The position numbers and the translations under genes were made by a program. From the UHGV virus genome UHGV-1601690: a stretch of 24,689 bases of DNA, one strand, 5' to 3'. Source of the stretch: a virus. Each line of letters begins with the position of its first letter. The first letter of the stretch is position 1. A model generated the notes under the pieces. It did no database searches, was not told where the DNA came from, and worked only from the letters and a program-made list of their open reading frames with translations. Shown here in pieces: positions 221 through 21,365 of this stretch.

Positions 221-661
221 TCAAGTTTTCTCTCCAGCCTGTGCCAAGGCTTCAACTTCCAAATCGTAAGACTCAAACTCATAGTCCTGGTCGTCAACCT
301 CTTCAGGCACTGGCAGTAAATGCCAGGCTGAGTATATCTGGCCATTATCAAAACGCTCCTGGCTGTAGAGCGTCGCGGCTATGAGTGTTAGCGCCGGGCG
401 GTCATAACGGTAAAATTTGCGAACGTCACGGTCAACGAGACGACCGAAATTACCATAACCGCGCTCCAGTAATAATTTTTTAATTTCCGGCCAGTATGGG
501 CCATAGCTGCGGTACAGGCGGGGATTTTTCAGTAATCGCCCGCGTAGCCCTGACAGGAAGAAATCAACGTATTCGTCTTCTGTCTTTCCTAACAACGCTG
601 TACGGAGTACCGCCTCAAGATATGTTTTATTCGGTTTTATTGTATCAGATAGTGTGGCCAT
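221..661 (-). CDS. Hypothetical 146-aa protein immediately downstream of darB; by position this is the P1 ulx slot (Dar accessory protein)
   Basis: ORF in the six-frame track with ATG at 659-661; sits 33 nt downstream of the darB stop on the same strand, with a CGCCCGG/CCGGGCG stem-loop (671-688) in the spacer. Assignment is by synteny only. Confidence 0.55.
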   Translation of the reverse strand: MATLSDTIKPNKTYLEAVLRTALLGKTEDEYVDFFLSGLRGRLLKNPRLYRSYGPYWPEIKKLLLERGYGNFGRLVDRDVRKFYRYDRPALTLIAATLYSQERFDNGQIYSAWHLLPVPEEVDDQDYEFESYDLEVEALAQAGEKT

Positions 662-694
662 ATTATGCGACGCCCGGCGAACCGGGCGCTCCTG

Positions 695-3600
695 TTATGC
701 GTATTGTTGGATGACGGCCAGAACGTCCGCCACGTTGTGTTTTGTCTCGATAATCCACCAGTTGCCCGGGAAATCGCTGTTCTTCGCCTTCGCTGGCAGC
801 CAGCGAGCGCCGAATTTCGCCTTGATTGCGTCTTTCGCACGGAAAAGAACGCCTTTCATGCCTGAGGCTTCCTGAAGCCCAAATACCTCGCCAGCGGCGA
901 ATTTTGGTGCGTACATCATCTTCAGGTCGGCGGTGGATACGCGATAATTCAGACCAAGAGACTGAGCTATGCTGGTGGCATCACCCTGTATTGATGATAA
1001 CTCTTCTTGTTTCTCGTTTCTGGCGGCAATTTCTTCCTCCGTGATGTTGCCAAGGGCCAGGTTTATCCGATCAGCGTCGGCCTGTTTCTCTTCATCGGTG
1101 CGCCCGGCAAGAACCGTGTTAATTCTCTGCAATATCTCCACATGATTCTTGCGCATGCTGAGCAATTCCGGCGTAACCTCGTTAAGATCCACCAGCCCAA
1201 GGATGGCAAGGTCGGAAAACATTGATACCAGGTTGTAGGTCATGCGATAGCTGAGTTGGCCATAGGCTGATGGCAACTGCACCGCATCCATTTGATAGGC
1301 ATCCATAAATTTAGAGCCGTCGTTTACGACATCCGCAATTGCAGGTGTGATTTTCCCTGTGGTGGCGGCCTCCCTGATTGCTGTTACCCACGATTGAGTC
1401 AGTGCGGCGACTGCATGATTCAGATTGGCTTCCCGTTCTGCTGCGATGCGCGCGCTTGCTGCGTCCATTGCCTGCTTGATCTCGGCTTTATTGCTGTAAA
1501 TGCCAATGGTGCCAAACTGTGCTGTGGTGATCTCATAATCTGACGCCCGGAACTCATGGGTACCGAAAATGGCATTGGTGACCTCAAGTTCAGAATCCCC
1601 GTTACGAGTAGCCCCCTGGCTTGTTTTCTCCGGCATTTTTGCGATCGCATCCGCTATTTTCTCCTGAATTGCTTCAGGGGATAGCGTATCTCCGTATGAC
1701 GCGATTACATCGCCATAATTGGAGCCAAACAATTCAACCAGGAATGTTTCTGCCGAACGGATCTGGCGGTTATTCCCTTCCGACATCATACCAAGCACCC
1801 ATTTTGCAATTGACGACTTCAGCGCGCCGTCACGGCGATCCGGGTAAACCGCATGCTTCAGTGGGTCCGTATAGGTACCAACAAAATCAATGCTATAGCC
1901 TGACTCTGTAGTCTGAACGCCGTATGAGTCAGTGATTTTGATCATGCCGCGCTGCTGGAAACGGTAGAAATCGTCACAGGAAATGATGTCGTTAATCCCG
2001 GCGATGGAGACGCCACCACTGATTTTCTGCATAACAGCATCTTCATCGGGAGTTACATCCACCTGTTTATCCAGCGTCTTCACATCCCAGTTACCCGATT
2101 TGGTGCCTTTGAAGGTAAAGATGATCTCCACATCTGCGCGCTGGCTGTCGAAGTCCAGCGACTTAATGCGAACGATATCACCAGCACAATCATAGTATTG
2201 GCCTACACGCCATGAGCGATCGCCGATAACAAGGAACTCACTCGCATGGTTAACCAGGTCAGGATCAACATCCAGAATGCCTTTATTTATTGCATCCTCC
2301 ACCAGCGGGCGCAGGCGTTTGATATCCGTCGCGGCCTTCTGAGTACGGTTCAATAATTTCTCATAGCGGGAGATGGCTTGAGTGATATTAGCCTTGCGCT
2401 GAATGGCGCTTTTCAACGACGCGCGATACTGTGCTAACAACGTACGGTCTGTGTGATGGACGCTACCCCAGCGGGCCTTCCAGTCTGCATTATCAGCTGC
2501 TTTGGCCATTACCGCCTGTTTGAATTTAGCTACCTCGGCGGTGGTCTTTTCAAGTTCCGCTTTACTTCGCTCTAATTCAGCGGTAAGAGCCGCAACATCC
2601 TCGCCAGCTGCATGTTGCGCCTTGATGTAGTTCTGAAGGTCGATAGCGGCCTGTTCTTTCTGGCGGGCGCGTTGCACGGCTTTCGCCTTATCCATTTGAA
2701 CCTGCATCATTGCCAGACGTTCGCCATCATCCTTAGCGGTATACATCTGCATTTCGATCATATCGTTGGCGTCGGCGTTCTCCATTTCTGACTTATCTGA
2801 ACGGAGGATATCGGAGATCCAGCCTGCTTTACGCTTCAGCGTCTTCAGTCGGTATTCATCGAAAGAACCCTTGCCGCAGTAGTAGTGAACGCGAACGCTT
2901 GCACGGTTGGAGCCAACTCGGGCACCGCGACCGTTTCGTTGCGCAATACTGGCTGGAGTCCATGGCAACGTCAGATGATGGATGTCAGTCGTTCCTCGAT
3001 GCAGGTTGATTCCCACCTCTGCCTTTTTGTTGCAGATGATGATCGGAGTCCGGCCCTCCTGGAAGTCGGCTGCAATCTTTTCCAGACCGCCCAACGACAT
3101 TTCATTTTGCTGCGCGATATAGGCGTCATACAGAGCCATTTGCTCGTTGTATTTCGCTATCTGTGCATCTGTTGGTTCATCCGGTAACTCTTTCGGCGGT
3201 TTAACCGCTTTCAGTTTCTTACCGGTTTTACCTGCCTCGGCAACCGTCTGAGCATTCAGTATCCCCACCTTTGAAGGTTCAAGGTTAAGAGCATTGCAGA
3301 TAATGCGCTTGAGCTTCTGGTGCTGCGTTTTTTCATCGGTGAAGATGATTTGCTTACCTTCCGGGAAAAACTCCTTCAGCGTGGCAATCAGCTTCGCGTA
3401 TTTGGGCGTAACGGGGTGAGTTACGGTCTGTTCGTCAATGCCAAACCTGGCCAGGCGCTTATTCACTTCCTGCTCGAACGCTTCCGGAACCTGCAACTGA
3501 ATAAACTCGCCCTTATCTATCAGGGAGTATTGCGATTGCTGCGTGATTGAATCATCACTGTCGTCGTCTTCGCTGGTGGCTTGTTTAGGCAAACTGTCCG

Positions 3601-6600
3601 CCAGCTGCTGCACCGCATCGGCGTACTCCGGCAGGAAACGATAGGTGATCCGGCGATAGTACAGGTCCATGTCAGTACATACGCGGTCCATATCCCTGAT
3701 TATTGAGAAGATCGGACGGGCTTTCTCGTGCTCAATCACGCCGTCTTCATTGACCGAGGTCGTTACGCCATTGTTGGCTTTGGCCGCCGCTTCCGCCTGC
3801 TGACGCAATTCTTCATACGCCGCCAGTTGTTCTTCAGTAAGTGGTGCATCCTGCTGGTGTTCGTCCAGCTCCGGGATCTCCACGGTATCCTTAACGTCTT
3901 CCGCCGTTTTAAGCGTTACCCAGCGATGGAATATACCGCGCAGCGCATCAAGGTTTTCAAAGCCCACCAGCGCCATTTTTTCTTCAACTTCACCGCTAAT
4001 TTTCTGTACCGTTTCCAGCCTGGTCTTGCCGAAGAATTTAACGAAGTCATCAGGACCGTAGATCCCCATGTTCTGCCAGTATTCCTTCGGCAGAACATGA
4101 GAAAGCATGTTGTATGCATCGATCGGGGTGTTAACGACTGGCGTTGCAGTCAGGAGAACCGGCCCGCGCCCACCATTCTTTTTCATCAGGTACGCGTTTT
4201 TAATTGCCATATCTCGCGCCGATTGCGCCACCGCGCTGGTGGGCAGATAGGCCAGTTGTGACGCTTCGCGACCATTTTTATAGCTATTGCGGTAGTTGTG
4301 ACCTTCGTCAGCGATCACACTATCGAAGCCCATATCCTCAAAGTACGGATACTTCTCTGCTTTTTCGGTGCCGGTATCTGAATACTCCGACAATACCCGG
4401 CGACGCGCGGCCTCTTTGCGGTGGGAGTCGGAGTCCATTGCGCTGGCTACGCGTCCAGCGGCAACGAAGTCATAAAGCATATCCTGTGCATGCTCATCTA
4501 CGGTGTCATCACGTAGCGGAATGCGGGCGTATTGTTCTTTGGTAAACACGACTGCACGGTAATTTGAGTGCGGGATCGCGTTCATCCGCGCCGTGATAGT
4601 GGCTTCATCTGCCAGCTTAAGAGCATCGCGCATAACTGGAGTGCCATCAGTACCAAGAACAGGTTTACCGTTCTCATCGAGCACCTGCACCTGGCGAATC
4701 TGATCGCCATCCATCAGCACATCAAGACCGACGAACAGGTAGTTACTGAATGCCTCTTCACTCAGGAATTCTTTTGCTTCGTAATACCAGTTTTCCAGCA
4801 CTGATTTAGGCACTACATACGCAGTACGGGTGGAGCGACCGTTCTCATAGTTGAACGCCTCAAGCGCCAGCGCGGTCGTGGTTTTACCCAGCCCGGTGCC
4901 GAAGCCCAGGATGCCGCGCCCATCTTCGGACAGTCGGCGCACCTCGCTATTCTGGTAATCAAATGGCTGGCGCTTACCGCTTAATCCCTTCAACCCAAGC
5001 GGATCGCCAGAGTGTTCATACGGGATATTGCTATTGAACACATCGTTGTATTTGGCAACCAGCTCATCGTAGCGATCGTGCGTCTTGATCCACTTATTGA
5101 ACTGGTCCTCAAGCAGTGCCATCTGCTCGCGGTAGCCGTTCGCCGTCGCGCTATCTTTGCCACCGATACGCGCACCATTGAGATACTTTTCCAGCTGTGC
5201 CGGGAACCCGGTCGCGTTTTCACCTGATTTACGGTCCCACTCGTAGCGAATCTCACCTGTTTCTTTATCCTTGCGCTGGACGACACCGTATCGGTGCCCG
5301 ACGAACAGACCATCACCACCGTGATAGGTGTCAGAAACCATTTCGTCGCCTTCCAGCTGCACTGACTGCACATAGCGCAGATCCGGATAGCCGTTTTCCT
5401 GCAAAAATTCCAGAATGACGGAACGGTCGAACCAACGGCTATTGAGCTTAAACCGGATATTCTCTGCTGGCGTCTTGATGCGCTTCTCTTCGATAGCTGC
5501 CAGCTGATTAAGGACGTTGTTCTTTACTGGACCGTCGGGGAGTGTGGCGAGGAATTCCTGTTTTGGAGCCACTATCTCGTTAATGTCGCCGCTGGTGGCG
5601 CGGGCGAACGGAACAATCCCGCCATACGGTGAAACCGCAATACCAGGGGTGCTGGCCAATAAATTAAGCAACTCTTCATCACTGGCTGGCAGTTCGCCGG
5701 TAAACGCAAGGCGGAAATCATCGAGCTGGATTGGATCGCGGGTGAGATCGCTATAGAGATAACGCAGGGTGTCCTGATAGCTGGTGGAGTCATAACTTGC
5801 GCTGGAATCATGCGTAACCAGCTTCCCTGTCAGCTCGTCAGAAATAGTGCCATCCAGCTTAATTGCACCACGGAAAGCAAACCAGGCGCGCGCACCGCTC
5901 CCCGACAATTTCGCTATCGGACCGCGACCGGGGTTACCAAAACGGTCAATCTCTGCCTGCAAACGGGATACCAGAGAAAGGCGCTGCTGTTCGATTTGTT
6001 CAGCACTATGCCCGGCGGCCTTCATGTCCTGATATTCAATTAACATCCGGCCAATCATCGCCCCGCGATACAAGCGTTCACGGTATTTTTCAGGCTGGCT
6101 GTTAATCCAGTCCACCAGCTGCACCATATCGTCGCTGATTGATGTGGTGTACTTATCGCGGACATTTGCCATCTGGGTAAATGTCATGCCGAGACGGCCT
6201 TCTGTTGTAGTCAGGTTACGCTGAAGAGCCTCCCAGCTATCCGCGCCATAACTGGCAGCATCGATCTTAAGTTCCTTCCCGGCATCAGCTTCAATCCAGC
6301 GACCACCAGCATATTTTTGCCATACGCCATTAATCAGGCGCATTTCCCCTTCACCAACAACGTCTGCGGTCGGTGACGGTTCAGCCATATCGAGCAAAGA
6401 CCAGTCGATACGGCTTTCGAAACGATGAATCAGCTTCGCTTTAAGAGCCTGGTTATCAATCTGACCGTCGGCACGAACCTCAATACGCCCCTGGAAGCCC
6501 TTTTCCTGGGTGCCATGAACAAACCGGCGGCCGTCCTTTTCAAACCACTTGCCAGAAATAAACGTTGGCCAAAGCACATTTGCCGATTCGAGAGTGCTTT

Positions 6601-7462
6601 CATCCACCAGGGGGATTTTCTCAGCCATCTCTGCCGGATGTTTGCGCATCAGCACCACATCAACAACTGTACTGGTCCCGTTTGCGTCAAAAGTACCGGT
6701 AGGCAAGCGGTGGGCACCAAGAAATTCAGCTTTCCGTGATAGGCGCAGGCGTAACCGCTTCATGTTTGAACCTGAAACAATGGACGGCGGCACAATCACG
6801 CACATGAATCCGCCTGGCTTTATCTTGTCCAGCATGCGGAGCATGAAGTAAGAACCCATGTCCGTTTCTTCTGCGTAAGGCTTATCGATGTTGCGTGTGT
6901 TATCACGACCACCGAACGGAACGTTACCCACAACATGGTCGAATGAATCGTTAGGCGTGCTTACAGCCAGTTGTTCGAACGGAGAAATCTGTACGCTGTC
7001 TTCCGGGTGCAACAGCTGGTTTATACGACCGGAAACACTGCTGATCTCAGTCGCGGTCATCACCGTACCAACCGGTTTTGTCTCATTAAAAACGCCGGTT
7101 CCCGCCGATGGTTCCAGAGTGTTACCTACGTCCGCGCCGTAGAGCTTCATGATCTCCCAGACACCTTCAGCGATCGGCTTTGGTGTGTAATATTCGGAGA
7201 CGGACCCGCCAATGCCGCCTTCACCGGTGTACCCAGCCAGGATCTGGCGCTGTTCATCTGTCAGTGTCGCGCCGTCCACCAGCGAATTAAGCAAATCTAT
7301 CGCCTTCTGATTCGCCTCACGGCGCAGTCGGTCATAGCTTTTGCCTTCCACCTTTTCCACGCCGTATTTAATCGGCGCTCGGTGAGATGTTATTGCCCTA
7401 ATGTATTTCAATATTTCGCTGACACTTGAACAGCGAAACACCCCCATATATAGCTTGTTCAT
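695..7462 (-). CDS. darB: DarB-type giant anti-restriction protein: N-terminal N6-adenine methyltransferase domain fused to an SF2 helicase
   Basis: Single 2255-aa ORF, the length I recall for P1 DarB. ATG at 7460-7462 preceded by AAGGA. Methyltransferase motif I EPSAGTG (about 7090-7120) and motif IV GNVPF (6914-6928). Helicase motif I GFGTGLGKTT (4877-4906), motif II DEGH (4298-4309), plus TATP and QRNGRGAR motifs further on. Confidence 0.9.
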   Translation of the reverse strand: MNKLYMGVFRCSSVSEILKYIRAITSHRAPIKYGVEKVEGKSYDRLRREANQKAIDLLNSLVDGATLTDEQRQILAGYTGEGGIGGSVSEYYTPKPIAEGVWEIMKLYGADVGNTLEPSAGTGVFNETKPVGTVMTATEISSVSGRINQLLHPEDSVQISPFEQLAVSTPNDSFDHVVGNVPFGGRDNTRNIDKPYAEETDMGSYFMLRMLDKIKPGGFMCVIVPPSIVSGSNMKRLRLRLSRKAEFLGAHRLPTGTFDANGTSTVVDVVLMRKHPAEMAEKIPLVDESTLESANVLWPTFISGKWFEKDGRRFVHGTQEKGFQGRIEVRADGQIDNQALKAKLIHRFESRIDWSLLDMAEPSPTADVVGEGEMRLINGVWQKYAGGRWIEADAGKELKIDAASYGADSWEALQRNLTTTEGRLGMTFTQMANVRDKYTTSISDDMVQLVDWINSQPEKYRERLYRGAMIGRMLIEYQDMKAAGHSAEQIEQQRLSLVSRLQAEIDRFGNPGRGPIAKLSGSGARAWFAFRGAIKLDGTISDELTGKLVTHDSSASYDSTSYQDTLRYLYSDLTRDPIQLDDFRLAFTGELPASDEELLNLLASTPGIAVSPYGGIVPFARATSGDINEIVAPKQEFLATLPDGPVKNNVLNQLAAIEEKRIKTPAENIRFKLNSRWFDRSVILEFLQENGYPDLRYVQSVQLEGDEMVSDTYHGGDGLFVGHRYGVVQRKDKETGEIRYEWDRKSGENATGFPAQLEKYLNGARIGGKDSATANGYREQMALLEDQFNKWIKTHDRYDELVAKYNDVFNSNIPYEHSGDPLGLKGLSGKRQPFDYQNSEVRRLSEDGRGILGFGTGLGKTTTALALEAFNYENGRSTRTAYVVPKSVLENWYYEAKEFLSEEAFSNYLFVGLDVLMDGDQIRQVQVLDENGKPVLGTDGTPVMRDALKLADEATITARMNAIPHSNYRAVVFTKEQYARIPLRDDTVDEHAQDMLYDFVAAGRVASAMDSDSHRKEAARRRVLSEYSDTGTEKAEKYPYFEDMGFDSVIADEGHNYRNSYKNGREASQLAYLPTSAVAQSARDMAIKNAYLMKKNGGRGPVLLTATPVVNTPIDAYNMLSHVLPKEYWQNMGIYGPDDFVKFFGKTRLETVQKISGEVEEKMALVGFENLDALRGIFHRWVTLKTAEDVKDTVEIPELDEHQQDAPLTEEQLAAYEELRQQAEAAAKANNGVTTSVNEDGVIEHEKARPIFSIIRDMDRVCTDMDLYYRRITYRFLPEYADAVQQLADSLPKQATSEDDDSDDSITQQSQYSLIDKGEFIQLQVPEAFEQEVNKRLARFGIDEQTVTHPVTPKYAKLIATLKEFFPEGKQIIFTDEKTQHQKLKRIICNALNLEPSKVGILNAQTVAEAGKTGKKLKAVKPPKELPDEPTDAQIAKYNEQMALYDAYIAQQNEMSLGGLEKIAADFQEGRTPIIICNKKAEVGINLHRGTTDIHHLTLPWTPASIAQRNGRGARVGSNRASVRVHYYCGKGSFDEYRLKTLKRKAGWISDILRSDKSEMENADANDMIEMQMYTAKDDGERLAMMQVQMDKAKAVQRARQKEQAAIDLQNYIKAQHAAGEDVAALTAELERSKAELEKTTAEVAKFKQAVMAKAADNADWKARWGSVHHTDRTLLAQYRASLKSAIQRKANITQAISRYEKLLNRTQKAATDIKRLRPLVEDAINKGILDVDPDLVNHASEFLVIGDRSWRVGQYYDCAGDIVRIKSLDFDSQRADVEIIFTFKGTKSGNWDVKTLDKQVDVTPDEDAVMQKISGGVSIAGINDIISCDDFYRFQQRGMIKITDSYGVQTTESGYSIDFVGTYTDPLKHAVYPDRRDGALKSSIAKWVLGMMSEGNNRQIRSAETFLVELFGSNYGDVIASYGDTLSPEAIQEKIADAIAKMPEKTSQGATRNGDSELEVTNAIFGTHEFRASDYEITTAQFGTIGIYSNKAEIKQAMDAASARIAAEREANLNHAVAALTQSWVTAIREAATTGKITPAIADVVNDGSKFMDAYQMDAVQLPSAYGQLSYRMTYNLVSMFSDLAILGLVDLNEVTPELLSMRKNHVEILQRINTVLAGRTDEEKQADADRINLALGNITEEEIAARNEKQEELSSIQGDATSIAQSLGLNYRVSTADLKMMYAPKFAAGEVFGLQEASGMKGVLFRAKDAIKAKFGARWLPAKAKNSDFPGNWWIIETKHNVADVLAVIQQYA

Positions 7463-7473
7463 TGGTAATCCTT

Positions 7474-7490
7474 AACAAGTGACTAGTGTT
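7474..7490. promoter_or_regulatory. Near-palindromic element AACAAGTGACTAGTGTT in the divergent darB/prt intergenic region; candidate late-promoter element
   Basis: The 9-mer AACAAGTGA recurs about 100 nt upstream of lyz (minus strand, 12498-12506). In both places it is followed about 7 nt later by a TANNNT-like hexamer. Confidence 0.3.
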
Positions 7491-7529
7491 AAATTTCCGT
7501 TCAAACACGATGCGAATTATTCTAATTAA

Positions 7530-9260
<1,731 letters not shown>

Positions 9261-10528
9261 ACGGCAAACATTCCCAATTCACAGAGTCCGACCTAAACCA
9301 CATGAAGCGGCTTAGGAATTACAGACTCTCCAAGGGCTAACACTGCCAGCCCGGCAGCTTTTATATTACGGGCCGCGTTAATATCACGATCATGCTCTGC
9401 GCCACATTCCGGGCAGTGCCATTTACGAATATTAAGAGGCATTTTTTGCATGGTGAAGCCGCAACTGCTGCAACGTTTGGAAGAAGGGAAATACTGGTCG
9501 ATAGCGACAATGCTACGTCCACCCCATTCTCCTTTGTACTGGAGTTGGCGTACAAGTTCGCTCCAGCCTGTGTCAGCTATTGCTTTAGACAGCTTCGGGT
9601 TACGGATCATGTTTTTCACTTTAAGGGATTCAACGCAAACAACTTGGTTTTCGTTAATCAGTTTGCGGGACAACTTATGCAGGTTATCCATCCGACAATC
9701 GACTATTCTCGCGTGGAGGCGGGCAACCTTTAAACGTGCTTTGGCGCGGTTCTTTGAGCCTTTTTGTTTCTTGCTCAATCTGCGCTGTAACACTGCTAAT
9801 CGCTTCGCGTATTTAGCGTTGTGTCGAGGATTGCCAGTTTTAAAACCGGTATCGGTGACGAACAAATCTTTTAAACCAATATCAATGCCGACCGTGGAAA
9901 CGGTGATCGGCAGTGATACAGGCTCAAACTCGCAGAGACAGGATACAAAATATCGTCCGGCAGCATCCCTGGTGATAGTGACAGTGGATGGAGCAGACGG
10001 CAACGGACGGCTCCAGCGAACATCTAACGGCTCTTTGCCATGTACAGCTTGCCGTCACGGTATTTAAATGCGCTGGCAGTTAGTTCTGCGGCCTGTTTAT
10101 GCCGCTTGCTCTTAAAAACTGGGTATGCAGCACGCCCGGCGAAAAAGTTAGCAAAAGCCGTTTGTTGGTGGCGCAGAGACTGCTGGAGGGGGACGCAGGA
10201 AACGTCATTCAGCCAGGCGAATTCTGGTTCTTTTTTCAGTGCCGTTAATTTGGCGCTGGCTTGTGCATAGCCGACCCTCTCATGGCGTGCGTAGTACGCA
10301 TCGGTGCGCCAGCGAAGGAGGCTGTTATAGACAAAACGCACACACCCAAAAGTCCGGGCTAATAGCTCGGTTTGTTCGGGAGTTGGATAGAATCGATATT
10401 TATAGGCACGCTTCATGTTCTATATAATACATTGAAACTAATGAGTATATAAATGAATACACGGACGAAAATGTTATCAAAGCCAATATACCAACAGACA
10501 TTAGGTAAGGTAGCTGGAGGGCAATATA
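9261..10528 (-). mobile_element. tnpB-only IS200/IS605-family insertion between prt and pro (ends not determined; coordinates are the surrounding intergenic limits)
   Basis: No Y1 tnpA-sized ORF on either side. Only 32 nt separate the convergent prt and tnpB stops, so the right end must abut or overlap the prt 3' end. Confidence 0.5.
9293..10416 (-). pseudogene. tnpB: tnpB (IS200/IS605-family OrfB, RNA-guided nuclease family), split by a frameshift
   Basis: N-terminal fragment 10024-10416 (MKRAYKYRFYPTPEQTELL...) and C-terminal fragment 9293-10003 (RuvC-like region and CxxC...CxxC zinc finger, KRCSSCG...HCPECG) lie in different frames. The C-terminal frame is open upstream and reads PLDVRWSRPLPSAPSTVT, continuous with the N-terminal fragment if one base is restored near 10027-10033. 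Confidence 0.85.
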
Positions 10529-11548
10529 ATGACTGATGTTTTGAAAACGGTCACTGACCGCTTTTGTCTCTATAGCAATGCTCGAAAAGGTCGCCAGAAC
10601 GGGCGACAGTATGTATTAAGCGCGGTTAAGACCATGCTTGAAAGCAAGGAAACTCAGGAAGGTTTACGCCTTGGAGAGCTTTTCGGCTATTACGGTCACG
10701 GTCGCCGACAGCTGACCGGCAAACTGGAAGTACCAGAAACCAGCGTAATCATGGTGGAAGGTCGCCCGGTCATAATCGACAATGTTCCAGCGTGCCGAAC
10801 AGTGGCTATATCTGTTGACGACAACGGCATCGTTACCCATACACAGGAAATTCTTAATACAGAGCCGGGGAAAATCGTCGCCGCGATGATCGAAAGCCGT
10901 GCTGGTGGCTGGAGCTGGGCCACTGGCGGGCGCGAGTCCGGGAAAATCGCTGTAACCACCAGCTTCCATGGTGTGGATTATGTGACAACGCCGAACTATA
11001 TAAGTCTGGATCATCCTGCCAGCGCCGGAATGTTTGAAAGCGCGGATTCTAAATCTTTACTGGCAGAGTCCCTGGCGGCGCATGGGTACTCCGACGAGTC
11101 AGTGCAGGCCGTTATATCCCATTACGGCAAAATGGCTGAACTGGAAATGATGGTGGAGGCGACAGAGCGTACGGCAGAACTGGAGACCGCACTACTCGAA
11201 AGCCAGGGCCGCCACCTCGAAGCAATGGCCAAGATCGCAGATGCTGAAGCGCGAATTGCTTTGCTGGAGGAAACAGCGGGTATCCGCGACGATGTGCTGG
11301 CAGCAATGCAAGACGAACTGGATAACCTCCCGATCTTCGTCTCCGCCGCCCAAAAAGACGCATTCCGCCTCAAAGAACCTGGTGATGCAAAAATCGTTGC
11401 CACACTTTTCGAATCTCTGATCAAAGTTGGCGCGCGCAACTTGCCTGTCACTAAGAAAATTAAAGAGGTTCCGCAAGCGGCTAACGTCCAGGCACCGCGT
11501 GAGACAAGCATCATCACGTTTAATAATTCAATCAATCCGTTCAAATAA
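10529..11548 (+). CDS. pro: Putative prohead protease/scaffold (P1 Pro position)
   Basis: 339-aa ORF, ATG preceded by GGAGGG. C-terminal third is coiled-coil-like (AELEMMVEATERTAELETALLES...). Assignment by synteny. Confidence 0.55.
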   Translation: MTDVLKTVTDRFCLYSNARKGRQNGRQYVLSAVKTMLESKETQEGLRLGELFGYYGHGRRQLTGKLEVPETSVIMVEGRPVIIDNVPACRTVAISVDDNGIVTHTQEILNTEPGKIVAAMIESRAGGWSWATGGRESGKIAVTTSFHGVDYVTTPNYISLDHPASAGMFESADSKSLLAESLAAHGYSDESVQAVISHYGKMAELEMMVEATERTAELETALLESQGRHLEAMAKIADAEARIALLEETAGIRDDVLAAMQDELDNLPIFVSAAQKDAFRLKEPGDAKIVATLFESLIKVGARNLPVTKKIKEVPQAANVQAPRETSIITFNNSINPFK

Positions 11549-11561
11549 CCACCAAAAATAA

Positions 11562-11587
11562 CCCCGGCGGCTGCCGGGGTTCTCGTT
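11562..11587. terminator. Bidirectional rho-independent terminator between pro and the lyz-side genes
   Basis: Stem CCCCGGC / loop GGCT / stem GCCGGGG (11562-11579), followed by TTCTCGTT on the plus strand and by TTATTTTTGG on the minus strand. Confidence 0.6.
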
Positions 11588-11595
11588 AACTATTA

Positions 11596-12397: not shown

Positions 12398-12530
12398 AAA
12401 GACCTCATAAGCGAATTTTTTACGCTCCAGGACAAACACCCATTCACAGCCATTACCGACTGACTCGATCCCTTTAGAAGGCACAGGATAATGCAAATCA
12501 CTTGTTAGCTACGTTTCAAAGATATACATT

Positions 12531-12547
12531 ATTGCTCTAATTAATTT
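12531..12547 (+). promoter_or_regulatory. Candidate P1 C1-repressor operator 20 nt upstream of ssb
   Basis: ATTGCTCTAATTAATTT matches the remembered C1 operator consensus ATTGCTCTAATAAATTT at 16 of 17 positions. It overlaps the expected ssb promoter. Confidence 0.45.
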
Positions 12548-12566
12548 ATTTTATTAGGTAAGATAA

Positions 12567-15175: not shown

Positions 15176-15481
15176 TTAATATACGATCTGGTCTACATGA
15201 TCCCCAAAATCATCGTCGTCCTCATCGCCACCCTCTACTGCTGGCCAATCGACAAACCAGCCAGCGTAAAGATGCAGCGTTCGGAGAACATCACTTGCGG
15301 GAGCATCAAGGGTGTTAACGAATCCCATATAGCTATTGGGATTTGCCCCAGCTATGGCTTCAGCGATCATGTCCTCGGTAATGTCACCGGAGATAATGCT
15401 TAAACGCCCGGAAACTTCTTCATTATCATCAAATTCGATAATGGCATCTCCGCCTAATGGCGCTGCGATTTTAATCTGCAT
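15176..15481 (-). CDS. Very acidic 101-aa protein, last gene of the darA operon
   Basis: Start overlaps the ddrB 3' end by 11 nt. About 22 Asp/Glu against 3 Lys/Arg; C-terminus EGGDEDDDDFGDHVDQIVY. Confidence 0.6.
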   Translation of the reverse strand: MQIKIAAPLGGDAIIEFDDNEEVSGRLSIISGDITEDMIAEAIAGANPNSYMGFVNTLDAPASDVLRTLHLYAGWFVDWPAVEGGDEDDDDFGDHVDQIVY

Positions 15482-18458
15482 TATTTAGCTCCTTTGCCAC
15501 ACCTAATAACAGTTCCAGCAATCCGTCACCATTCATCAGTGATGCGGCAGCGGCCTCTTTGTCATGATACAACTGAAGAGCCATAGAGAATACTTCCGTT
15601 GCTGATGTTTTTGAAATAGTCGGTGCTTTCTGCCGAATTTTCCCGGAGTTACTCACTGAGGCTGGCGGGTATACCTTCGCCATATAAATATTACTCAATC
15701 GAGATCTGAAGCACCATTCAGGCTTGCCACGCCCACCGATATTGACGAAAGATGGCTTATCCCCTTCAACATTGGCCTTCAGGAATGATCGGGCTTTCTC
15801 TAACAAACCAGGGTTACTGTACTCAAGATGATGACCCAGCTCGTGCCACAGTGCACTTGCATTTTCATCGTTCAAATTGACAGCAACAACACCATTAAGA
15901 TTTGCATATGCCCTTCCCTGGTGGTGAACCACCTTTGATAAGGTCGAAATTTTACCGCCGGTCAGGCGATAAATATCAGCAAGTTCCTTGCGCAGGTCTA
16001 TCCCACCATTCTGTCCAGCGCGGGCTTCTTCCACTTCTTCCGTGATAAAAGAGTCGGCCCACTCAAGAGCTTTTTCTTCAGATACGGATGAGTTTGCGAT
16101 CGCACTGTTCATGGCAGATAACACTTTCTCGTGGACCGAACCCATACTTCGCTGATTCATTTGCCAGCGTGTCTGCGGGTTATATGAGAATCGCTTAAGT
16201 AGTTGGTCAAGCTGCTCAAGTTCTTCTTCACTGACATACCTTTTAGCCTCACCAATAATGCCAGGGAGAATATTGCCGTTAGGATTAAACGCTCGCGAAA
16301 GGAAGAGTTTCAGCGCCCCCATGCCCTCCGATGCTTCAATATCACCAATAACCCGGTTAACAATGGCCGCACTCTTCGGATTAGCATCCGCCAACGCTCT
16401 GGCTACAATTTGCAGGGACGATACGACCTCACGCTGCATATCCGTCCTGATCTCATCAATAAACTCTGGCGTTATGCCGTGCTCTTTAAGGATATCCCTG
16501 CCTTCCGCCGTTACCCCATCGATATCACCGACATGTTTATTAACCCGACTTTGCAATGCCTTAAATGCCTTCAGAATTCCACGGGCATCATCCGCTTTAC
16601 TAACGGCCTTCCTGAATGCTGGCAAGAAGTCTGAGTTAACCTCATTTTGTTGATCGGCCCACTGAATGGAGGCTTCTTTCATCTCGTCCAGAGTCAGATC
16701 ACCCAACGCAGTATGGTCTGTGAATATGAGCGACAACCTCTGAACCATTTCTGCCAATGGTGATGCCGAATGCGCCGCGCTAAGGAATGCTTTCACCCTG
16801 GTTGGGCGAATGGAAAACCAGTCAATAGCTGGTGGCATATCTCCGTTTTTTATCGCCTGCGCTATCTCGTCAAAGCCATCGCGCCCAAGGGAGGATGCGT
16901 GATTTAACAAGCCGCGAAGTAACGAATTGCTGATACCGAATAATCGGCACCATTTTTTCACGTCGGCAACAGGCATTCGAACAAAATGCGCAAGCACTTG
17001 TACAAGCTGTTCATCTTGGGGATCTGTACGGGAAAGCAGCCTGATCAGATGAATAATGTCTTTGATGCCGGATGCCCGATGTAATAGCAAACTGGTATAT
17101 GGAGCAACACCGTTGTAACTACCGCCGGAAACGGACTCGAAAAGACCGCCGGATATCCCTTGCATGCCTTCGTTTTCCAGTTCCTGAGACACCTGGCGAA
17201 GGATATCCTGTAACGACACATCACCACCGCCAAACATATCCCCCAGCGCCTGGCCCTGGTGCTGTAACTCATCATTGATACGTTGAGCCATCAATTTAAA
17301 AGCGGTGGCCATACGCTTCGCGCTACGGTTATTCGCGACGATGAACAACGCGAGAGCTTTCACTTCCGGGGCTGTTTCGCTGAACATATCCCCCTGAGCA
17401 ATAACATCGGTAATATGTTGGCCTGACTCCTTCGATTGCCTTACCAGGTCTACCGCATCTTTCAATGCCGCCAGCGCCTTTTTATCGAGGCTATCCGCTG
17501 TCTCAATGCCATCAACAATAGTTGTCACAGCCTGCTTGTGCGCTTCTCCTGATAAAGCCTGCATCTGGACAAAATCATTGGCTGCCGCATTAAGCGCCGT
17601 CAGAACATTACGCATATCCGGATCAGCTTCTTCTGCAACCATCCTTACCAGGCGCGCATCCTTATATGCCTTGGCAAAGATCGCGTTTTGTATACGGTCT
17701 ACAAGTTGCCGTGTTGGTCGCCCATCTTCCGTTACAAGGCCAGCAGCCTGTGTGGCACCAACTTGCGTCATGAATCCGCGAATAAACGCGTCATTACTGC
17801 GGCTAAGCAGATCTCCGCTTTCTGATGGGTTAAACAGCGCCATCATCGCCGGAGTTATGCTGTCAGCATCAACAAAAGCCTTTTCACTGGCTGCCATTTC
17901 CTGAAGATCAGAAATATTTGAGTCCTTGGCAAACTGAACGCGGTCAACCTTAGTTAACCGGCGGCGCACCAGTACCGGAGCCGCCATTGATTCAACCTTT
18001 TCAGGTCGTATGCCGAATTCGGTCGCATGATCAATCAGGTACTCACGATACCGATCCGCATTGCCGTCCTGATAGGCTTTGATGATCCCCATGGTCCGTC
18101 CATTACCTGACTCAACGGCATTGTCCTCACCAATTATCGGCGCGCCATGGCTGGATAAACCGGAATCGGTAAGCTGGGCAGGACGCAAATCCTTGGATAT
18201 CTGGTTGACCTGAAGAAGACTGGATGCGCGGGTCCGGTCGCGCGGCTGAAGTTCCTGGGGATAGTCAGGGTTAATTTTCCCGTCCAGAGTATTGGATACC
18301 AAAAGAGCTGAGGCATCGACGATATCAAACGCTGTTTTTACCTCGTCTCCCTTCGCTGTCACCACATACGAAACCCGCCCGTAATTGGGCAGGTTTTTTA
18401 GCAGCTCGATCAGCGTTTCTATGCTGGTGGCCATTACCACCTGATCGCTTAAGCTCAT
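15471..18458 (-). CDS. ddrB: DdrB-like large Dar accessory protein
   Basis: 995-aa ORF downstream of ddrA in the darA operon; size and position match remembered P1 DdrB. Contains an HELGHH (HExxH) motif at 15828-15845. Confidence 0.75.
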   Translation of the reverse strand: MSLSDQVVMATSIETLIELLKNLPNYGRVSYVVTAKGDEVKTAFDIVDASALLVSNTLDGKINPDYPQELQPRDRTRASSLLQVNQISKDLRPAQLTDSGLSSHGAPIIGEDNAVESGNGRTMGIIKAYQDGNADRYREYLIDHATEFGIRPEKVESMAAPVLVRRRLTKVDRVQFAKDSNISDLQEMAASEKAFVDADSITPAMMALFNPSESGDLLSRSNDAFIRGFMTQVGATQAAGLVTEDGRPTRQLVDRIQNAIFAKAYKDARLVRMVAEEADPDMRNVLTALNAAANDFVQMQALSGEAHKQAVTTIVDGIETADSLDKKALAALKDAVDLVRQSKESGQHITDVIAQGDMFSETAPEVKALALFIVANNRSAKRMATAFKLMAQRINDELQHQGQALGDMFGGGDVSLQDILRQVSQELENEGMQGISGGLFESVSGGSYNGVAPYTSLLLHRASGIKDIIHLIRLLSRTDPQDEQLVQVLAHFVRMPVADVKKWCRLFGISNSLLRGLLNHASSLGRDGFDEIAQAIKNGDMPPAIDWFSIRPTRVKAFLSAAHSASPLAEMVQRLSLIFTDHTALGDLTLDEMKEASIQWADQQNEVNSDFLPAFRKAVSKADDARGILKAFKALQSRVNKHVGDIDGVTAEGRDILKEHGITPEFIDEIRTDMQREVVSSLQIVARALADANPKSAAIVNRVIGDIEASEGMGALKLFLSRAFNPNGNILPGIIGEAKRYVSEEELEQLDQLLKRFSYNPQTRWQMNQRSMGSVHEKVLSAMNSAIANSSVSEEKALEWADSFITEEVEEARAGQNGGIDLRKELADIYRLTGGKISTLSKVVHHQGRAYANLNGVVAVNLNDENASALWHELGHHLEYSNPGLLEKARSFLKANVEGDKPSFVNIGGRGKPEWCFRSRLSNIYMAKVYPPASVSNSGKIRQKAPTISKTSATEVFSMALQLYHDKEAAAASLMNGDGLLELLLGVAKELNNAD

Positions 18459-18470
18459 CCCTGTTACGCC

Positions 18471-18836
18471 TTATTCTGCCTCTTTAATGTTGGCGGCTAT
18501 CCATGCCGCCGTGTGCTGTTTAACCTGGTCCAGGTCGATGTATGTGCCAACATATTGACTCAAGTCCTGTAACGTACCGATAAATGCATCAGTGCTCTGA
18601 TCGACGAATTTATCAGCCAGGAAATCAGCAACCAGTTTTGGCACACCATCATGTACCGAAGGTTGTTTTTCCTCGCCACTACCGCTGCCGGACGCGCCGT
18701 ACCCCATCTGTTGCATGATCTGGTCAATTTCATCGCTGATATCCAGCAACTCCATGCCACTCGCGGTCGCCGCTTTGGACATCAGAGCATCCAACTTATC
18801 GCTGAGATCCATTAACTCAATAGCTGATAGTGTCAT
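18471..18836 (-). CDS. ddrA: DdrA-like small acidic Dar accessory protein
   Basis: 121-aa ORF; start overlaps the darA stop by 4 nt. Assignment by operon position. Confidence 0.7.
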   Translation of the reverse strand: MTLSAIELMDLSDKLDALMSKAATASGMELLDISDEIDQIMQQMGYGASGSGSGEEKQPSVHDGVPKLVADFLADKFVDQSTDAFIGTLQDLSQYVGTYIDLDQVKQHTAAWIAANIKEAE

Positions 18837-20752
18837 GCCGCTACCCCCGCTTTCTGGATTGCTACCAACAGATCAGCCAGGTGGCGAGCTGCGCCGTTAA
18901 CCAGCTCTTCGTTTTCCTCAAAACGTTCGGCAGCCTGAAGGGATGCAATCGCTTCCCGGACATTGCCCCGGGCGTTACGGATCTCCGCCATGTCAGTGCT
19001 TTGCATATCCATCACGTTATTGAGATATTCAATGGCTTTATTAGCCTCTGCATCTGCTTCGCTAACCGTTTCATCAGGCTGTGCCGGGGCCGGTTCTGGC
19101 TGAGTAATCTCACCGACTTCGGCCTGCAATGCATTGATCATGCTCTGCAACATTTTCTCGGTGCCAGCGCCACCCGGAAACGCAATATTGGGGAAAGTTT
19201 TTTGAAACTGAGTTTTCAGCATTACGCGGAACTCGTCTGGTGAGCTGGTGGCCAGCTCCAGAGCTTTTTGTGCATATTTGCCAAACGGACCATTAGTAAG
19301 TGTCTTCGCCAGGAAGTCGAAAGAATCCTCGCGAGGCAATAACTTCAGGTCGTACTCACTCATTTGCTGATCAGAAAGCGGGGTATCATAAGTAGCAATG
19401 CCGTAGCGTGCATATTCATAATACGGATCACCTTCATCAGGGCGCGGCAGAATTGCTTTGTTACCTTCAGGTATTGCGCCAGGGGCCGCCGGACGCATTT
19501 GCAGAGCATATCGATATGCACCTACAGAGACTTCTGGTTCAGGCGAAGAGCTACCGGTATCCTCCGCTGGTTCAGGTTCGACGTTTTCCGGTTTATGTTC
19601 TTCTGGTTGGACCAGATATTCCGATACATTACCCGCTTTATAGGCTTTAAACAGCTTGCCGATCGCATCTGCCATGTCCACACCCTGTATGGATTTAGCC
19701 TTGATCATGTATACGCTGCCATCCGGGTCGGTTAACTGGATATACCCTTCGCCATCCCCAATGAATTGCTTCATTGATGCACCATTACTGAGCGTCGCTT
19801 CCCCGTCCATATGCATACGATTTTTGATACTGGCAAGGCGATCCGTCAGCGCGCGAGAGTGCCCACCAGTCATCCCCGCTGGAGCAATGGTATCGCGCCC
19901 ACCAGTGCGATTGAGCTGATCAATCTCCGTCTGCAAACGCTCATTCTCTTCATAAAGAGAATCCGCTTCCGATGCAACAGCGTTAATTTTCTGCTCCAGA
20001 TCTGCCTTCTGCCCTTCTACCGCTGCCACCTGATCCGCGAGGTCGCTCATGGCATCCTCTTTCTGGTCACTGTCAGCCTGTAGTTGGGTTATTTCATCAA
20101 CAAGGGCTTTTTTCTTCTTCTGCGCACGCTGGAATTTTGCCGAGTTTTTCTCTGCAAGGTTGGCAAGTTTCATGGTGACCTGCGCCAGCGTCATATCACG
20201 TCCACTCATCGGAGCAACGGTGTGAGTAACGTCTTTTTTATTCAGTAAGAACTGGAAAGCAACCAGCGTATCGCTATTGGTGATCCGGTTTTCCGCTGTC
20301 GGGCTATGAAACAGAATGCTGATAGTCTGACCATCACTGAGCGGAATAATGGCTGGCAAGACCGGCAGCCCGTTAACGTTACGTGCCCGGCCAATTTCAG
20401 CGCCGCCGATCGCGCGCGCGCCGCTCTGGGCCACATCCCCCGTTTTATCACTCCCCGCAGAGATTCCGGTACCATTCAGCTTCTGGTTCAATGCCCGGAC
20501 AAATGCCTGCATGGTCCGGTGTAACTGCAAACGAGTAGAACTAATCGCCTCCAGTAAATCCGTAGCACACCAGTGGATCGGCGTGTCATAGAAGAACGTA
20601 GCCTCGATTTCCTCCAGGGTGTTGGATTCCGTCATCAGATAGCGGTCCTCACCGGCCATTAATGCGCGATATTCATCATCAGTCACTGGCGGGGGAAGCA
20701 CGTCAAGCCCAGGCTTGAGCGTCACCCCTTTATTGATATTGAACTGTTCCAT
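18833..20752 (-). CDS. darA: DarA-like capsid-internal anti-restriction protein
   Basis: 639-aa ORF, ATG preceded by AGGAAA. Shares a segment with the upstream hdf product (LANLAEKNSAKFQ vs AARKNSAKFQ). Size matches remembered P1 DarA. Confidence 0.8.
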   Translation of the reverse strand: MEQFNINKGVTLKPGLDVLPPPVTDDEYRALMAGEDRYLMTESNTLEEIEATFFYDTPIHWCATDLLEAISSTRLQLHRTMQAFVRALNQKLNGTGISAGSDKTGDVAQSGARAIGGAEIGRARNVNGLPVLPAIIPLSDGQTISILFHSPTAENRITNSDTLVAFQFLLNKKDVTHTVAPMSGRDMTLAQVTMKLANLAEKNSAKFQRAQKKKKALVDEITQLQADSDQKEDAMSDLADQVAAVEGQKADLEQKINAVASEADSLYEENERLQTEIDQLNRTGGRDTIAPAGMTGGHSRALTDRLASIKNRMHMDGEATLSNGASMKQFIGDGEGYIQLTDPDGSVYMIKAKSIQGVDMADAIGKLFKAYKAGNVSEYLVQPEEHKPENVEPEPAEDTGSSSPEPEVSVGAYRYALQMRPAAPGAIPEGNKAILPRPDEGDPYYEYARYGIATYDTPLSDQQMSEYDLKLLPREDSFDFLAKTLTNGPFGKYAQKALELATSSPDEFRVMLKTQFQKTFPNIAFPGGAGTEKMLQSMINALQAEVGEITQPEPAPAQPDETVSEADAEANKAIEYLNNVMDMQSTDMAEIRNARGNVREAIASLQAAERFEENEELVNGAARHLADLLVAIQKAGVAA

Positions 20753-20753
20753 G

Positions 20754-21365
20754 TTAATTTCCTGCTTTCAGTTGCTTAAGACGACGTTTGAGTTCGCCAT
20801 TCCGTGCCTTTTCGTTATTGAGTCGGCCCGTCTCCTTATCCAGCTTCGCCCGCAAATCAGTGATCTGCTGTTGATTGAAAGACACCGAATTCTGCGCGGA
20901 CTTATAAGCGGCAACCACCTGAGCATTCCGCTGTTTTGCTTCTTGCAGGCGCTGAAAGTTGGATTTAACTGCCGGTTTCTTGTCTACCGGATTGGCAACA
21001 CGCTTCGCTTTGGCGATCAGTGATTTCTGGAATTTTGCGGAGTTTTTGCGGGCCGCCTGTCCCATGGCGGTACCAAGCGTCTTGATATCCGGCGACTGAG
21101 CGTTAGGAATAGCTTTTCCATTCAGTTTCACAGACGATATATCGCCAGTATCGTTTACCTGTATGGCAAGAATTTGTCCGTCGTTAAGAACCAGCTTTGC
21201 GGTTTTAACTTTAACGCCATCTTTCGTTGTTGCGCGGTTGCTGGAGTCAACCTCAATTACCGTAACCCCGGTTTTATTGATCGCCGCGATAAGGGATTTC
21301 AGCCCCTTTTCATTAACCTGGTCAAAATCGACCGTTGCATACTTATTTTTCGTCATCTGACACAT
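20754..21365 (-). CDS. hdf: Hdf-like protein (homologue of a DarA fragment)
   Basis: 203-aa ORF with local similarity to DarA (NSAKFQ region) and a coiled-coil-like C-terminus. The second ATG at 21356, preceded by AGGA, is the more likely start. Confidence 0.7.
   Translation of the reverse strand: MCQMTKNKYATVDFDQVNEKGLKSLIAAINKTGVTVIEVDSSNRATTKDGVKVKTAKLVLNDGQILAIQVNDTGDISSVKLNGKAIPNAQSPDIKTLGTAMGQAARKNSAKFQKSLIAKAKRVANPVDKKPAVKSNFQRLQEAKQRNAQVVAAYKSAQNSVSFNQQQITDLRAKLDKETGRLNNEKARNGELKRRLKQLKAGN

Follow-up and report, generated by a model that had tools for sequence, protein, structure and literature searches.

A P1-like darB-ulx gene pair and its Dar partners in a punavirus genome segment

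The darB-ulx locus

The window analysed here (the whole 24,689-nt stretch from virus genome UHGV-1601690) is a P1/P7-type punavirus segment. Positions 221 to 7462 had been described in a first-pass annotation as a giant methyltransferase-helicase fusion of the DarB type with a downstream partner gene, and two genes are indeed found there, both on the minus strand (as are all features given below with coordinates). Re-translation returned the giant open reading frame (695..7462, ATG start, 2255 aa, 251 kDa), followed after 33 nt, the same spacing as in P1, by a 146-aa frame (221..661). The larger product is not just DarB-type but DarB itself: BLASTP against P1 DarB (AAQ13985 / YP_006479) gave 2229/2255 identities (98.8%, 26 differences, gaps = 0), DarB of P7 (AAQ07489) has the same 2255-aa length and differs at 28 positions, and PHROG 1685 matches over the full length. 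The partner is Ulx, which is identical to P1 Ulx (AAQ13984) at 145 of 146 residues (the single substitution is H101Q) and matches PHROG 1629 (“Ulx-like anti-restriction”, E 2e-65). At the DNA level, 8 kb are 98-99% identical to P1, P7, SJ46, RCS47 and related phages. Comparison of sequences thus shows the region to be darB-ulx from a punavirus of the P1/P7 kind, a type of phage that is maintained as a plasmid.

The differences from P1 darB at the codon level are mostly silent: 95 are synonymous and only 26 non-synonymous, so darB is not a chance reading frame. The dN/dS of about 0.09 (a rough estimate from counts of codon differences) indicates strong purifying selection relative to P1. These counts, together with the full-length 2229/2255 match, also led us to reject a pseudogene reading.

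The surroundings of the pair follow P1 as well. The gene order lxc-ulx-darB/prt-pro is the same, with darB divergent from prt-pro, and ulx overlaps lxc by 4 nt. Upstream of darB, the intergenic region shows 99% identity with P1 and P7; it contains a predicted sigma-70 promoter, PdarB (7516..7545; 9/12 match in a consensus scan), in the position of the PdarB annotated in P1, and a ribosome-binding site, AAGGA, lies 7 nt upstream of the ATG. The genes for the Dar partners, on which packaging of DarB depends in P1 (PMC9024508, PMC12810830), are all intact within 15471..21365: ddrB (15471-18458; 980/995 residues identical to P1), ddrA (18471-18836; 117/121), darA (18833-20752; 629/639) and hdf (20754-21365; 200/203). 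Other genes in the window are damaged: tnpB is split and a porin gene carries a frameshift. There is also an insertion between prt and pro.

Between darB and ulx lies a short element (670..693) made up of AGGAG (689-693) and then an 8-bp GC hairpin (670-689) with a TTCG loop, which leaves 9 nt to the ATG of ulx (659-661). Its predicted RNA fold has an energy of -18.1 kcal/mol, with a z-score of only -0.95, and is no more stable than shuffled sequence. One distant locus (L003) has AGGAG, hairpin and ATG in the same arrangement, with a stem that differs in sequence; two others (L004 and L007) do not have this arrangement. The gene order is more widely kept: all 6 of the distant loci examined have a homologue of Ulx as the next gene downstream of darB (Ulx HMM, E 1e-11 to 1e-81), as the literature had already pointed out for this linkage. 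Ulx itself ends in an acidic tail (net charge -10 over the last 29 aa).

Domain architecture of DarB

All of the methyltransferase and SF2 helicase motifs that had been read from the letters were found again on re-translation: EPSAGTG (aa 117), GNVPF (aa 179), GLGKTT (aa 857), DEGH (aa 1052), TATP (aa 1105) and QRNGRGAR (aa 1508). A profile search for the two domains, proposed as a check at that stage, matched both in Pfam above the curated cut-offs: N6_Mtase (aa 145-291) and the Eco57I methyltransferase (aa 166-244) on one side, and SNF2-rel_dom (PF00176, aa 849-912, 42.6 bits against a cut-off of 24.9), ResIII (aa 833-904) and Helicase_C (PF00271, aa 1455-1517) on the other.

The protein begins with the counterpart of the capsid-targeting signal (aa 1-30; 7373..7462) that was defined experimentally in P1 (Gonzales et al. 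2022, PMC9024508), where residues 6-10 are needed for packaging. The window protein is identical to P1 at 29 of these 30 residues, including residues 6-10; the difference, S5Y, adjoins them and is private to the window allele in comparison with P1 and P7. Its position next to the packaging residues is a point against carrying P1 function over to this allele. An LPD36-type helical N-domain follows (aa 51-100; 7163..7312; described by Iyer et al. 2017, PMC5512222), and then the gamma-class N6-adenine DNA methyltransferase domain (aa 101-350; 6413..7162) with motif I (E117-PSAGTG) and motif IV (N180-V-P-F183); the methyltransferase region gave weak matches in the PDB to EcoKI HsdM chains. The linker between methyltransferase and helicase (aa 351-800; 5063..6412) is moderately conserved in the family profile. 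No Pfam model matched aa 290-830 even at E<=10, and none matched the linker of 20 diverse relatives either.

The ATPase (aa 801-1550; 2813..5062) has two lobes with helical inserts, and its key residues form Walker A (G857-LGK860-T), D1052-EGH, T1105-ATP and Q1508-RNGRGAR. On these sequence features (an N-lobe and a Helicase_C lobe, motifs I, II, III and VI, helical inserts) the helicase is assigned to the SWI2/SNF2 branch of SF2, and the DarB family profile matched INO80, SMARCA and SsoRad54 chains in the PDB at E 1e-9 to 1e-5.

Conservation was assessed in a set of 39 proteins, the window DarB and 38 relatives, with overall identities of about 30-50% and 14-31% in the C-terminal third. The relatives came from an exhaustive search of 1.84 billion representatives; a word-indexed search had given mostly near-identical E. 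coli and Salmonella fragments. In the LPD36 region, the motifs Y78-x-G80-x-G82-G83 and E90-Y-Y-T93-P94 (the TP motif) are invariant in 39/39. Methyltransferase residues N180 and P182 are likewise invariant in all 39, with F at position 183 in 37 and Y in two. In the ATPase, K860, D1052, E1053, H1055, Q1508, G1511, R1512 and R1515 are also invariant in all 39. NVPF was considered as a degenerate or defective motif IV and rejected, as it is the family consensus (V in 28/39). Invariance of both motif sets across such diverged members argues that both activities are needed; judged by sequence, it is probable that the adenine methyltransferase is active, as is the SNF2-type ATPase.

The C-terminal third

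The C-terminal 750 aa or so had been singled out as unexplained by known motifs, and after HMM, profile and fold searches they still are. No Pfam model matched aa 1531-2255 at E<=10, and NCBIfam, PHROGs and PDB (searched with the single sequence and the family profile) returned nothing credible; a Pfam scan of 20 diverse DarB relatives found nothing outside the methyltransferase and helicase. Among the 1.84 billion representatives, this region (aa ~1531-2255) was confined to the C-terminal end of DarB-like proteins 2000-2570 aa long. The structure prediction suggested at first pass gave a confident AlphaFold model (pLDDT 88) in which no known catalytic fold was recognised.

The model divides the region into four parts. 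Directly after the helicase (aa 1551-1735; 2258..2812; block pLDDT mostly 92-98), the motifs N1562-ADA and LLAxDPEE are followed by a coiled-coil stalk built from three long helices that run antiparallel (aa 1579-1619, 1623-1665 and 1670-1726), and it is in this segment that substitutions relative to P1 are densest. A Foldseek search of the PDB with the 725-aa model found only coiled-coil look-alikes (SMC, JetC, colicin E3, HlyD), none at E<=1e-3. As such matches swamped the search, aa 1735-2255 were re-modelled without the stalk, again confidently. A small beta-barrel of the SH3/BAH/Tudor/KOW type (aa 1736-1805; 2048..2257) is followed by a family-specific alpha/beta and helical region (aa 1806-2168; 959..2047) that contains Y1873-P-D and an invariant G1913 and is variable and rich in indels over aa 1950-2150. 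The last part is a small conserved alpha/beta domain (aa 2169-2255; 698..958; net charge +5) whose conserved residues are D2198, G2201, G2204, L2206, K2214 and W2235-W2236. The last ~450 residues found no convincing match in Pfam, PDB or viral models (BFVD). An HsdS-like target-recognition domain of type I restriction-modification (R-M), with its fold set between long conserved helices, was tried as an identity for the C-terminal third and rejected for want of a match to that fold; no target-recognition domain was identified in DarB.

Function and proposed mechanism

Both genes have long been known: in P1, the annotation of darB and ulx dates from 2004, and genetic work on them goes back to 1987.

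The phage head of P1 contains about 40 copies of DarB, which has a mass of 251 kDa (virion proteome, PMC9024508). Its loading is directed by the N-terminal ~30 residues (PMC9024508) and needs Hdf, DarA, DdrB and Ulx (PMC9024508, PMC12810830). DarB is described as being ejected with the DNA and protecting that same molecule in cis (PMC9024508, PMC12707154, PMC12810830); the type I restriction that it counters, as known for P1 only, is of the EcoK and EcoB types (Iida 1987 and Piya 2017, via PMC9024508, PMC12707154 and PMC12810830). By near-identity to the P1 proteins, packaging and type I protection would extend to the window DarB. The mechanism has been called undefined, and DarB has never been demonstrated to methylate DNA (PMC11109961, PMC9009780); plasmid assays of darB are confounded by the 11 Chi sites that it contains (PMC11109961).

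A methylase-helicase dyad hypothesis has been put forward for proteins of this kind (PMC5512222). Along these lines, an SNF2 motor would carry DarB along the entering DNA while the protein methylates adenines with low sequence specificity. A single methyl group in a type I target would leave a hemimethylated site, which type I enzymes would modify rather than cut. Points against the scheme are that EcoK and EcoB differ in the sequences that they recognise, for which a sequence-specific methylase could not account, and that DarB has no identified target-recognition domain. The C-terminal third and Ulx would be non-catalytic and serve packaging, oligomerisation or docking. We regard this scheme as a plausible but tentative account. 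It is also conceivable, though we think it unlikely, that the C-terminal third and Ulx form a new module that recognises and neutralises the type I complex or BREX PglX-type methyltransferases; if so, this module would be the actual determinant of antirestriction specificity instead of a packaging or scaffold element.

The motor could also act in another way. A DNA-bound SNF2 remodeller might strip type I or BREX-type complexes from DNA, or block their loading or translocation, with the methyltransferase fold kept mainly as a DNA/SAM-binding or base-flipping anchor. Some SNF2-type ATPases, among them RapA (cited in PMC5512222) and Mot1, are known to remove proteins from DNA, the family shows no variation in the ATPase motifs, and the stalk with its SH3/Tudor-like barrel is similar to the Tudor domains with which UvrD and PcrA end and which dock proteins. 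The Dar system moreover works against type I enzymes whose specificities are unrelated and also against StySA-BREX, a range that suits interference with the enzyme assembly better than methylation of sites (PMC9009780); the action on StySA is credited to DarA/DarAB and not to DarB alone. However, N180, P182 and F183 of the methyltransferase and its SAM-binding motif I are conserved as strictly as the ATPase motifs, which would be unexpected for a mere anchor, and blocked or stalled type I translocation normally leads to cleavage instead of averting it. We consider such a remodeller unlikely.

Two further readings dispense with catalysis or with function altogether. That DarB and other Dar proteins coat or occlude the entering DNA, making the enzymatic motifs irrelevant to antirestriction, would suit the cis-only action, the “physical obstruction” hypothesis summarised in PMC12707154, and the suggestion from cryo-EM of a possible complex of Dar proteins, near DarA-Hdf, that interacts with DNA (PMC12810830). 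Yet some 40 copies are too few to cover about 94 kb of DNA, the protein is acidic overall (net charge -51, pI 5.4), and at least 20 catalytic residues are invariant over 39 diverged homologues, indicating selection on catalysis; passive shielding is very improbable. Even harder to credit is a darB that decays without function in a defective prophage-plasmid: the split tnpB, frameshifted porin and prt-pro insertion would agree with it, but darB is a full-length, uninterrupted 6.8-kb frame under strong purifying selection relative to P1, with its promoter region and ribosome-binding site conserved and all Dar partner genes intact. Taken as a whole, a darB-ulx identity with function carried over from P1 is very probably the best explanation of the locus, DNA-riding methylation being its tentative mechanism.

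Identifying the genes adds nothing new, as darB-ulx is an ordinary, already known pair. What the element appears from its sequence to carry is a complete, apparently functional Dar system, and this bears on its movement between E. coli strains with type I R-M. The conserved residues (for example N180, K860, D1052, Y1873-P-D, G1913, D2198 and W2235-W2236) together with the models offer concrete targets for mutagenesis.

Comparison with known systems

The closest counterparts are those of P1 and P7. Their DarB has the same length, neighbours, promoter region and Dar partner genes, and the window protein differs from it by point substitutions only; Ulx of P1 and OlxA of P7 share the 146-aa length and the position downstream of darB, with one substitution in the window Ulx. 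PHROG 10089 (“DarB-like antirestriction”) aligns with aa 91-295 of DarB and with further stretches. Further away, the dyads of polyvalent proteins in phages and conjugative elements (Iyer et al. 2017, PMC5512222) share with DarB a core of LPD36, an EcoKI/TaqI-like N6A methyltransferase and an SNF2 ATPase. In these proteins, for example those of ~3,800-4,600 aa in Bcep22-like and PEp14-like podophages, this set stands, unlike in DarB, among many other effector domains. The sequence search did not recover polyvalent proteins as sharing the P1-type C-terminal third, the matches being confined to proteins of 2000-2570 aa.

Type III and Type ISP R-M enzymes and DISARM (DrmD/DrmMI) also combine an SF2 motor with a gamma-class adenine methyltransferase on DNA, an analogy proposed for the dyad in PMC5512222. 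Membership of DarB in DISARM DrmD or Dpd DpdE was rejected (NCBIfam scores of 43.5 against 610 bits and 31.2 against 500 bits, in the C-lobe only). In comparison with these systems DarB has neither a nuclease domain nor a recognisable target-recognition domain, and it comes from the virion and acts for the invader, not for the host.

Gene content and identity with phage P1

The interval 221-7462 had been described in the first-pass annotation as a DarB-type methyltransferase-helicase fusion with a downstream partner gene, a description that stands with one correction: the range comprises two genes, both on the minus strand. darB occupies 695-7462 (2255 codons, ATG start, AAGGA ribosome-binding site), and ulx lies downstream on the same strand at 221-661 (146 codons). 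Re-translation recovered every motif that had been reported: EPSAGTG at DarB aa 117, GNVPF at aa 179, GLGKTT at aa 857, DEGH at aa 1052, TATP at aa 1105 and QRNGRGAR at aa 1508. The claimed methyltransferase and helicase domains were borne out by Pfam models scoring above curated cut-offs: an N6-adenine methyltransferase (N6_Mtase, Eco57I) at aa 145-291, a SNF2/ResIII N-lobe at aa 833-912 and a Helicase_C lobe at aa 1455-1517. No Pfam match was found for aa 290-830 or aa 1531-2255 in a search to E<=10.

Protein alignment agrees with the DarB interpretation: 2229 of 2255 residues are identical to P1 DarB, ungapped, as are 145 of 146 in Ulx. By megablast, 18 phage records (P1, P7, SJ46, RCS47 and JL22 among them) span 80% or more of the first 8 kb, all at 98-99% identity, and the matched genes bear the annotations darB, ulx, lxc and prt. 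Upstream of darB, the sequence that holds the annotated promoters PdarB and LPpro matches P1 and P7 at 99% identity. The entire 24.7-kb window is a P1/P7-type segment: lxc (truncated by the window start), ulx and darB come first, with prt and pro divergent, followed beyond pro by lyz, ssb, a porin gene (as in P7), hxr, ddrB, ddrA, darA, hdf, lydB and lydA. Judged by sequence, the partner Dar genes are intact, with identities to P1 of 980/995 (ddrB), 117/121 (ddrA), 629/639 (darA) and 200/203 (hdf).

Conservation across the DarB family

Conservation was assessed in an alignment of the window DarB with 38 full-length relatives. It is strong at aa 50-350 (LPD36 and methyltransferase) and aa 800-1550 (SNF2), middling at aa 350-800 and weak at aa 1550-1950; aa 1950-2150 are highly variable, and conservation returns at aa 2150-2250. 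Residues identical in 39 of 39 members include Y78, G80 and G82 of LPD36 (G83 is G in 38), E90, T93 and P94 of the TP motif, P118 and G123 of methyltransferase motif I, N180 and P182 of motif IV (position 183 is F in 37 and Y in 2), and G857, G859, K860, D1052, E1053, H1055, A1106, T1107, Q1508, G1511, R1512 and R1515 of the ATPase. Invariance of catalytic residues in a family whose members share only 30-50% overall identity gives good grounds to regard both enzymatic activities as functionally required. Reading 'NVPF' as a degenerate NPPF was rejected: V181 is the family norm (28/39).

Some relatives carry additional sequence. In P0099 (a homologue at 5001-12392 of distant locus L005) and P0138, an intein-like insertion of 350-364 aa, with a LAGLIDADG_3 homing-endonuclease domain and the terminus ...VTHN, sits right after the Walker A lysine (the K860 equivalent). 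Four others, P0112 (from L008), P0102, P0105 and P0128, have 118-559 aa of extra N-terminal domains before the equivalent of the capsid-targeting signal, including a PF18823 'InPase' domain in P0112, so packaging signals or added effector functions may differ in those lineages.

The C-terminal third of DarB

The C-terminal third had been noted as unexplained by motifs, and it still has no known family: across 21 family members Pfam gave no match to it, a Foldseek search of the PDB brought up only coiled-coil look-alikes and nothing at E<=1e-3, and a BFVD search yielded nothing significant. The region now has defined limits and a structural model, and its restriction to the DarB family is shown. 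An exhaustive phmmer search with aa 1531-2255 against 1.84 billion representative proteins gave 101 matches, and the distant full-length ones are all proteins of 2000-2570 aa aligned at their own C-terminus, which marks the region as a DarB-family-specific module and not a mobile domain.

Structure prediction of this region, which had been suggested earlier, was carried out with AlphaFold2 and the family alignment and gave confident models (mean pLDDT 87.7 and pTM 0.60 for aa 1531-2255; 88.1 and 0.70 for aa 1735-2255). The predicted fold starts with two short helices bearing conserved NADA and LLAxDPEE motifs, continues with three long antiparallel helices (aa 1579-1619, 1623-1665 and 1670-1726) and a beta-barrel (aa ~1743-1805), and then passes through an alpha/beta and helical region with Y1873-P-D and the invariant G1913, a long helix (aa 1992-2035) and a helical bundle, to a small alpha/beta domain at aa 2171-2252 (D2198, G2201, G2204, L2206, K2214, W2235-W2236). 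Our reading of the model is a non-catalytic-looking stalk-plus-docking module whose barrel would be a generic interaction fold; the other ~450 residues had no convincing relative of known structure in the PDB or BFVD searches.

Five proteins from public E. coli assemblies (P0006, P0007, P0013, P0018 and P0019) are chimeric ORFs that end in the last 460-590 DarB residues at 98-99% identity, the other part being DarA N-/C-terminal domains (PF18789/PF18788), a ddrB-ParB domain (PF18763) or PF21379. P0007 was found on 12 contigs, the longest 88 kb. Such ORFs may have arisen by deletions in P1-like plasmids that joined same-strand dar genes, or they may be assembly artefacts.

Linkage of darB and ulx

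In all six distant DarB loci fetched (L003-L008), where the DarB C-terminal thirds are ~25-34% identical to the window's, a Ulx homologue follows darB immediately on the same strand with a gap of 0-35 nt. An HMM built from three Ulx sequences recovers the four others (E 1e-11 to 1e-26), the window Ulx is 51% and 32% identical to two full-length homologues (BLASTP), and a core motif, NPxxYR(S/A/T)(F/Y)G(P/A/G)(Y/W)W, is conserved. Several of these loci also have portal and pro genes, and a ddrB-ParB gene, close by. Since the linkage was previously noted in Thermus 'Lalka' phages (PMC11437467), the six loci confirm a known association and are no discovery.

The darB-ulx junction (659-697, minus strand) reads darB stop, AGGAG, an 8-bp GC hairpin, 9 nt and the ulx ATG; if the hairpin folds, the Shine-Dalgarno would reach a normal distance from the ulx start codon. 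The hairpin is not more stable than shuffled sequence (z -0.95). The same layout with another stem sequence occurs in L003 (~12910-12946), whose full-length DarB is 46% identical, and L004 and L007 have short ribosome-binding sites of the ordinary kind.

Other features of the window

In P1, prt and pro overlap; in the window, an insertion of ~1.27 kb (9261-10528) that P1 and P7 lack falls precisely at their junction. With it, Prt ends in GNDIDNCPP* instead of GNDND*, and pro is no longer coupled to prt. The minus strand of the insertion encodes an IS605-type tnpB in two separate ORFs, one at 10024-10416 (HTH_OrfB_IS605) and the other at 9293-10003 (OrfB_IS605 and Cas12f1-like TNB); no tnpA was seen. 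Phage vB_EcoM-673R5 has a 99% identical sequence at this site, and identity with Gifsy-1 gipA is 79%. The OmpC/NmpC-type porin gene (13289-14436, minus strand, as in P7) lies in a region of low GC (0.36-0.43) and is interrupted, relative to P7 nmpC, by a 35-bp insertion, GGTTTAAAGATGGCGACAAGACCTACATGCGTCTT, resembling a patch or partial duplication from another porin allele. What remains is a signal-peptide ORF of 84 aa and, apart from it, one of 312 aa, which makes the porin gene a probable pseudogene.

Similarity to P1/P7 stops at ~22180 (window 22180-24689), and JL22 is the only phage matching as far as the window end. A hexapeptide-repeat acyltransferase (PF00132; 23118-23681, plus strand) takes the place where cin was expected, and a tail-fibre assembly protein (Caudo_TAP; 23645-24262) and a tail-fibre repeat protein (24262-24669) are encoded on the minus strand. 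The C1 repressor operator consensus, ATTGCTCTAATAAATTT, has two plus-strand matches: 7392-7408, within the darB 5' end (3 mismatches; annotated in P7 as the hypothetical Op(pro)), and 12531-12547, upstream of ssb (1 mismatch), which is the known Ossb.

Possible mechanism and relation to the P1 Dar system

In P1, DarB (250 kDa) resides inside the head at ~40 copies per virion and is loaded after the other five Dar proteins; the first 30 residues suffice for capsid targeting of a reporter, and residues 6-10 are required (PMC9024508). The substitution S5Y (codon 5, window 7448-7450) adjoins these residues and is private to the window allele, P1 and P7 reading MNKLSMGV. DarB incorporation is assisted by Ulx and DdrB, and loss of any of the three renders P1 sensitive to EcoB and EcoK (PMC9024508 Table 1; PMC12810830). 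Dar works exclusively in cis, on the DNA that shares its virion (PMC12707154). By analogy, the window's DarB would be packaged through its N-terminal signal, would need Hdf, DarA, DdrB and Ulx, and would protect in cis against EcoK and EcoB.

The mechanism of DarB/Dar is explicitly termed undefined in published work (PMC11109961, PMC9009780). Iyer et al. took DarB as archetype for an LPD36-methyltransferase-SNF2 'dyad' and proposed that injected DNA is methylated in a translocation-coupled manner (PMC5512222). We tentatively prefer motor-coupled, low-specificity N6-adenine methylation of entering DNA: the SNF2 motor would carry DarB along the entering duplex while the methyltransferase places N6-methyladenine with low specificity, and one methyl group in a type I site would leave it hemimethylated, so that the type I enzyme would perform maintenance methylation instead of cutting. 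Such methylation would account for protection against enzymes with unrelated recognition sequences. That the SNF2 motor instead evicts or blocks the restriction complex seems rather unlikely, and passive shielding of the DNA is improbable. Least plausible is a non-functional copy: darB differs from P1 darB by 95 synonymous and 26 non-synonymous codons, and by the rough dN/dS of ~0.09 estimated from those counts the gene is under purifying selection and is no remnant.

Functional assays carry an important caveat: Skutel et al. found that plasmid-borne darB alleviates EcoKI restriction by way of its DNA, Chi sites plus an EcoKI site, independently of the protein, making Chi enrichment a confounder of darB plasmid assays (PMC11109961). 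Chi sites (GCTGGTGG) number 18 in 24.7 kb against 0.68 expected, spanning 971-19251; 11 of them, in both orientations, fall within darB (971-7283), equal to the published count for P1 darB. The EcoKI site (AACN6GTGC) occurs once in the window, at 143-155, against ~3.5 expected.

Identity, domain content, catalytic-residue conservation, the family-specific C-terminal module and the conserved linkage to ulx are established by the present analysis. The feature is, on the evidence of the alignments, the already-known darB-ulx module of P1, in an allele ~1% diverged from the reference.
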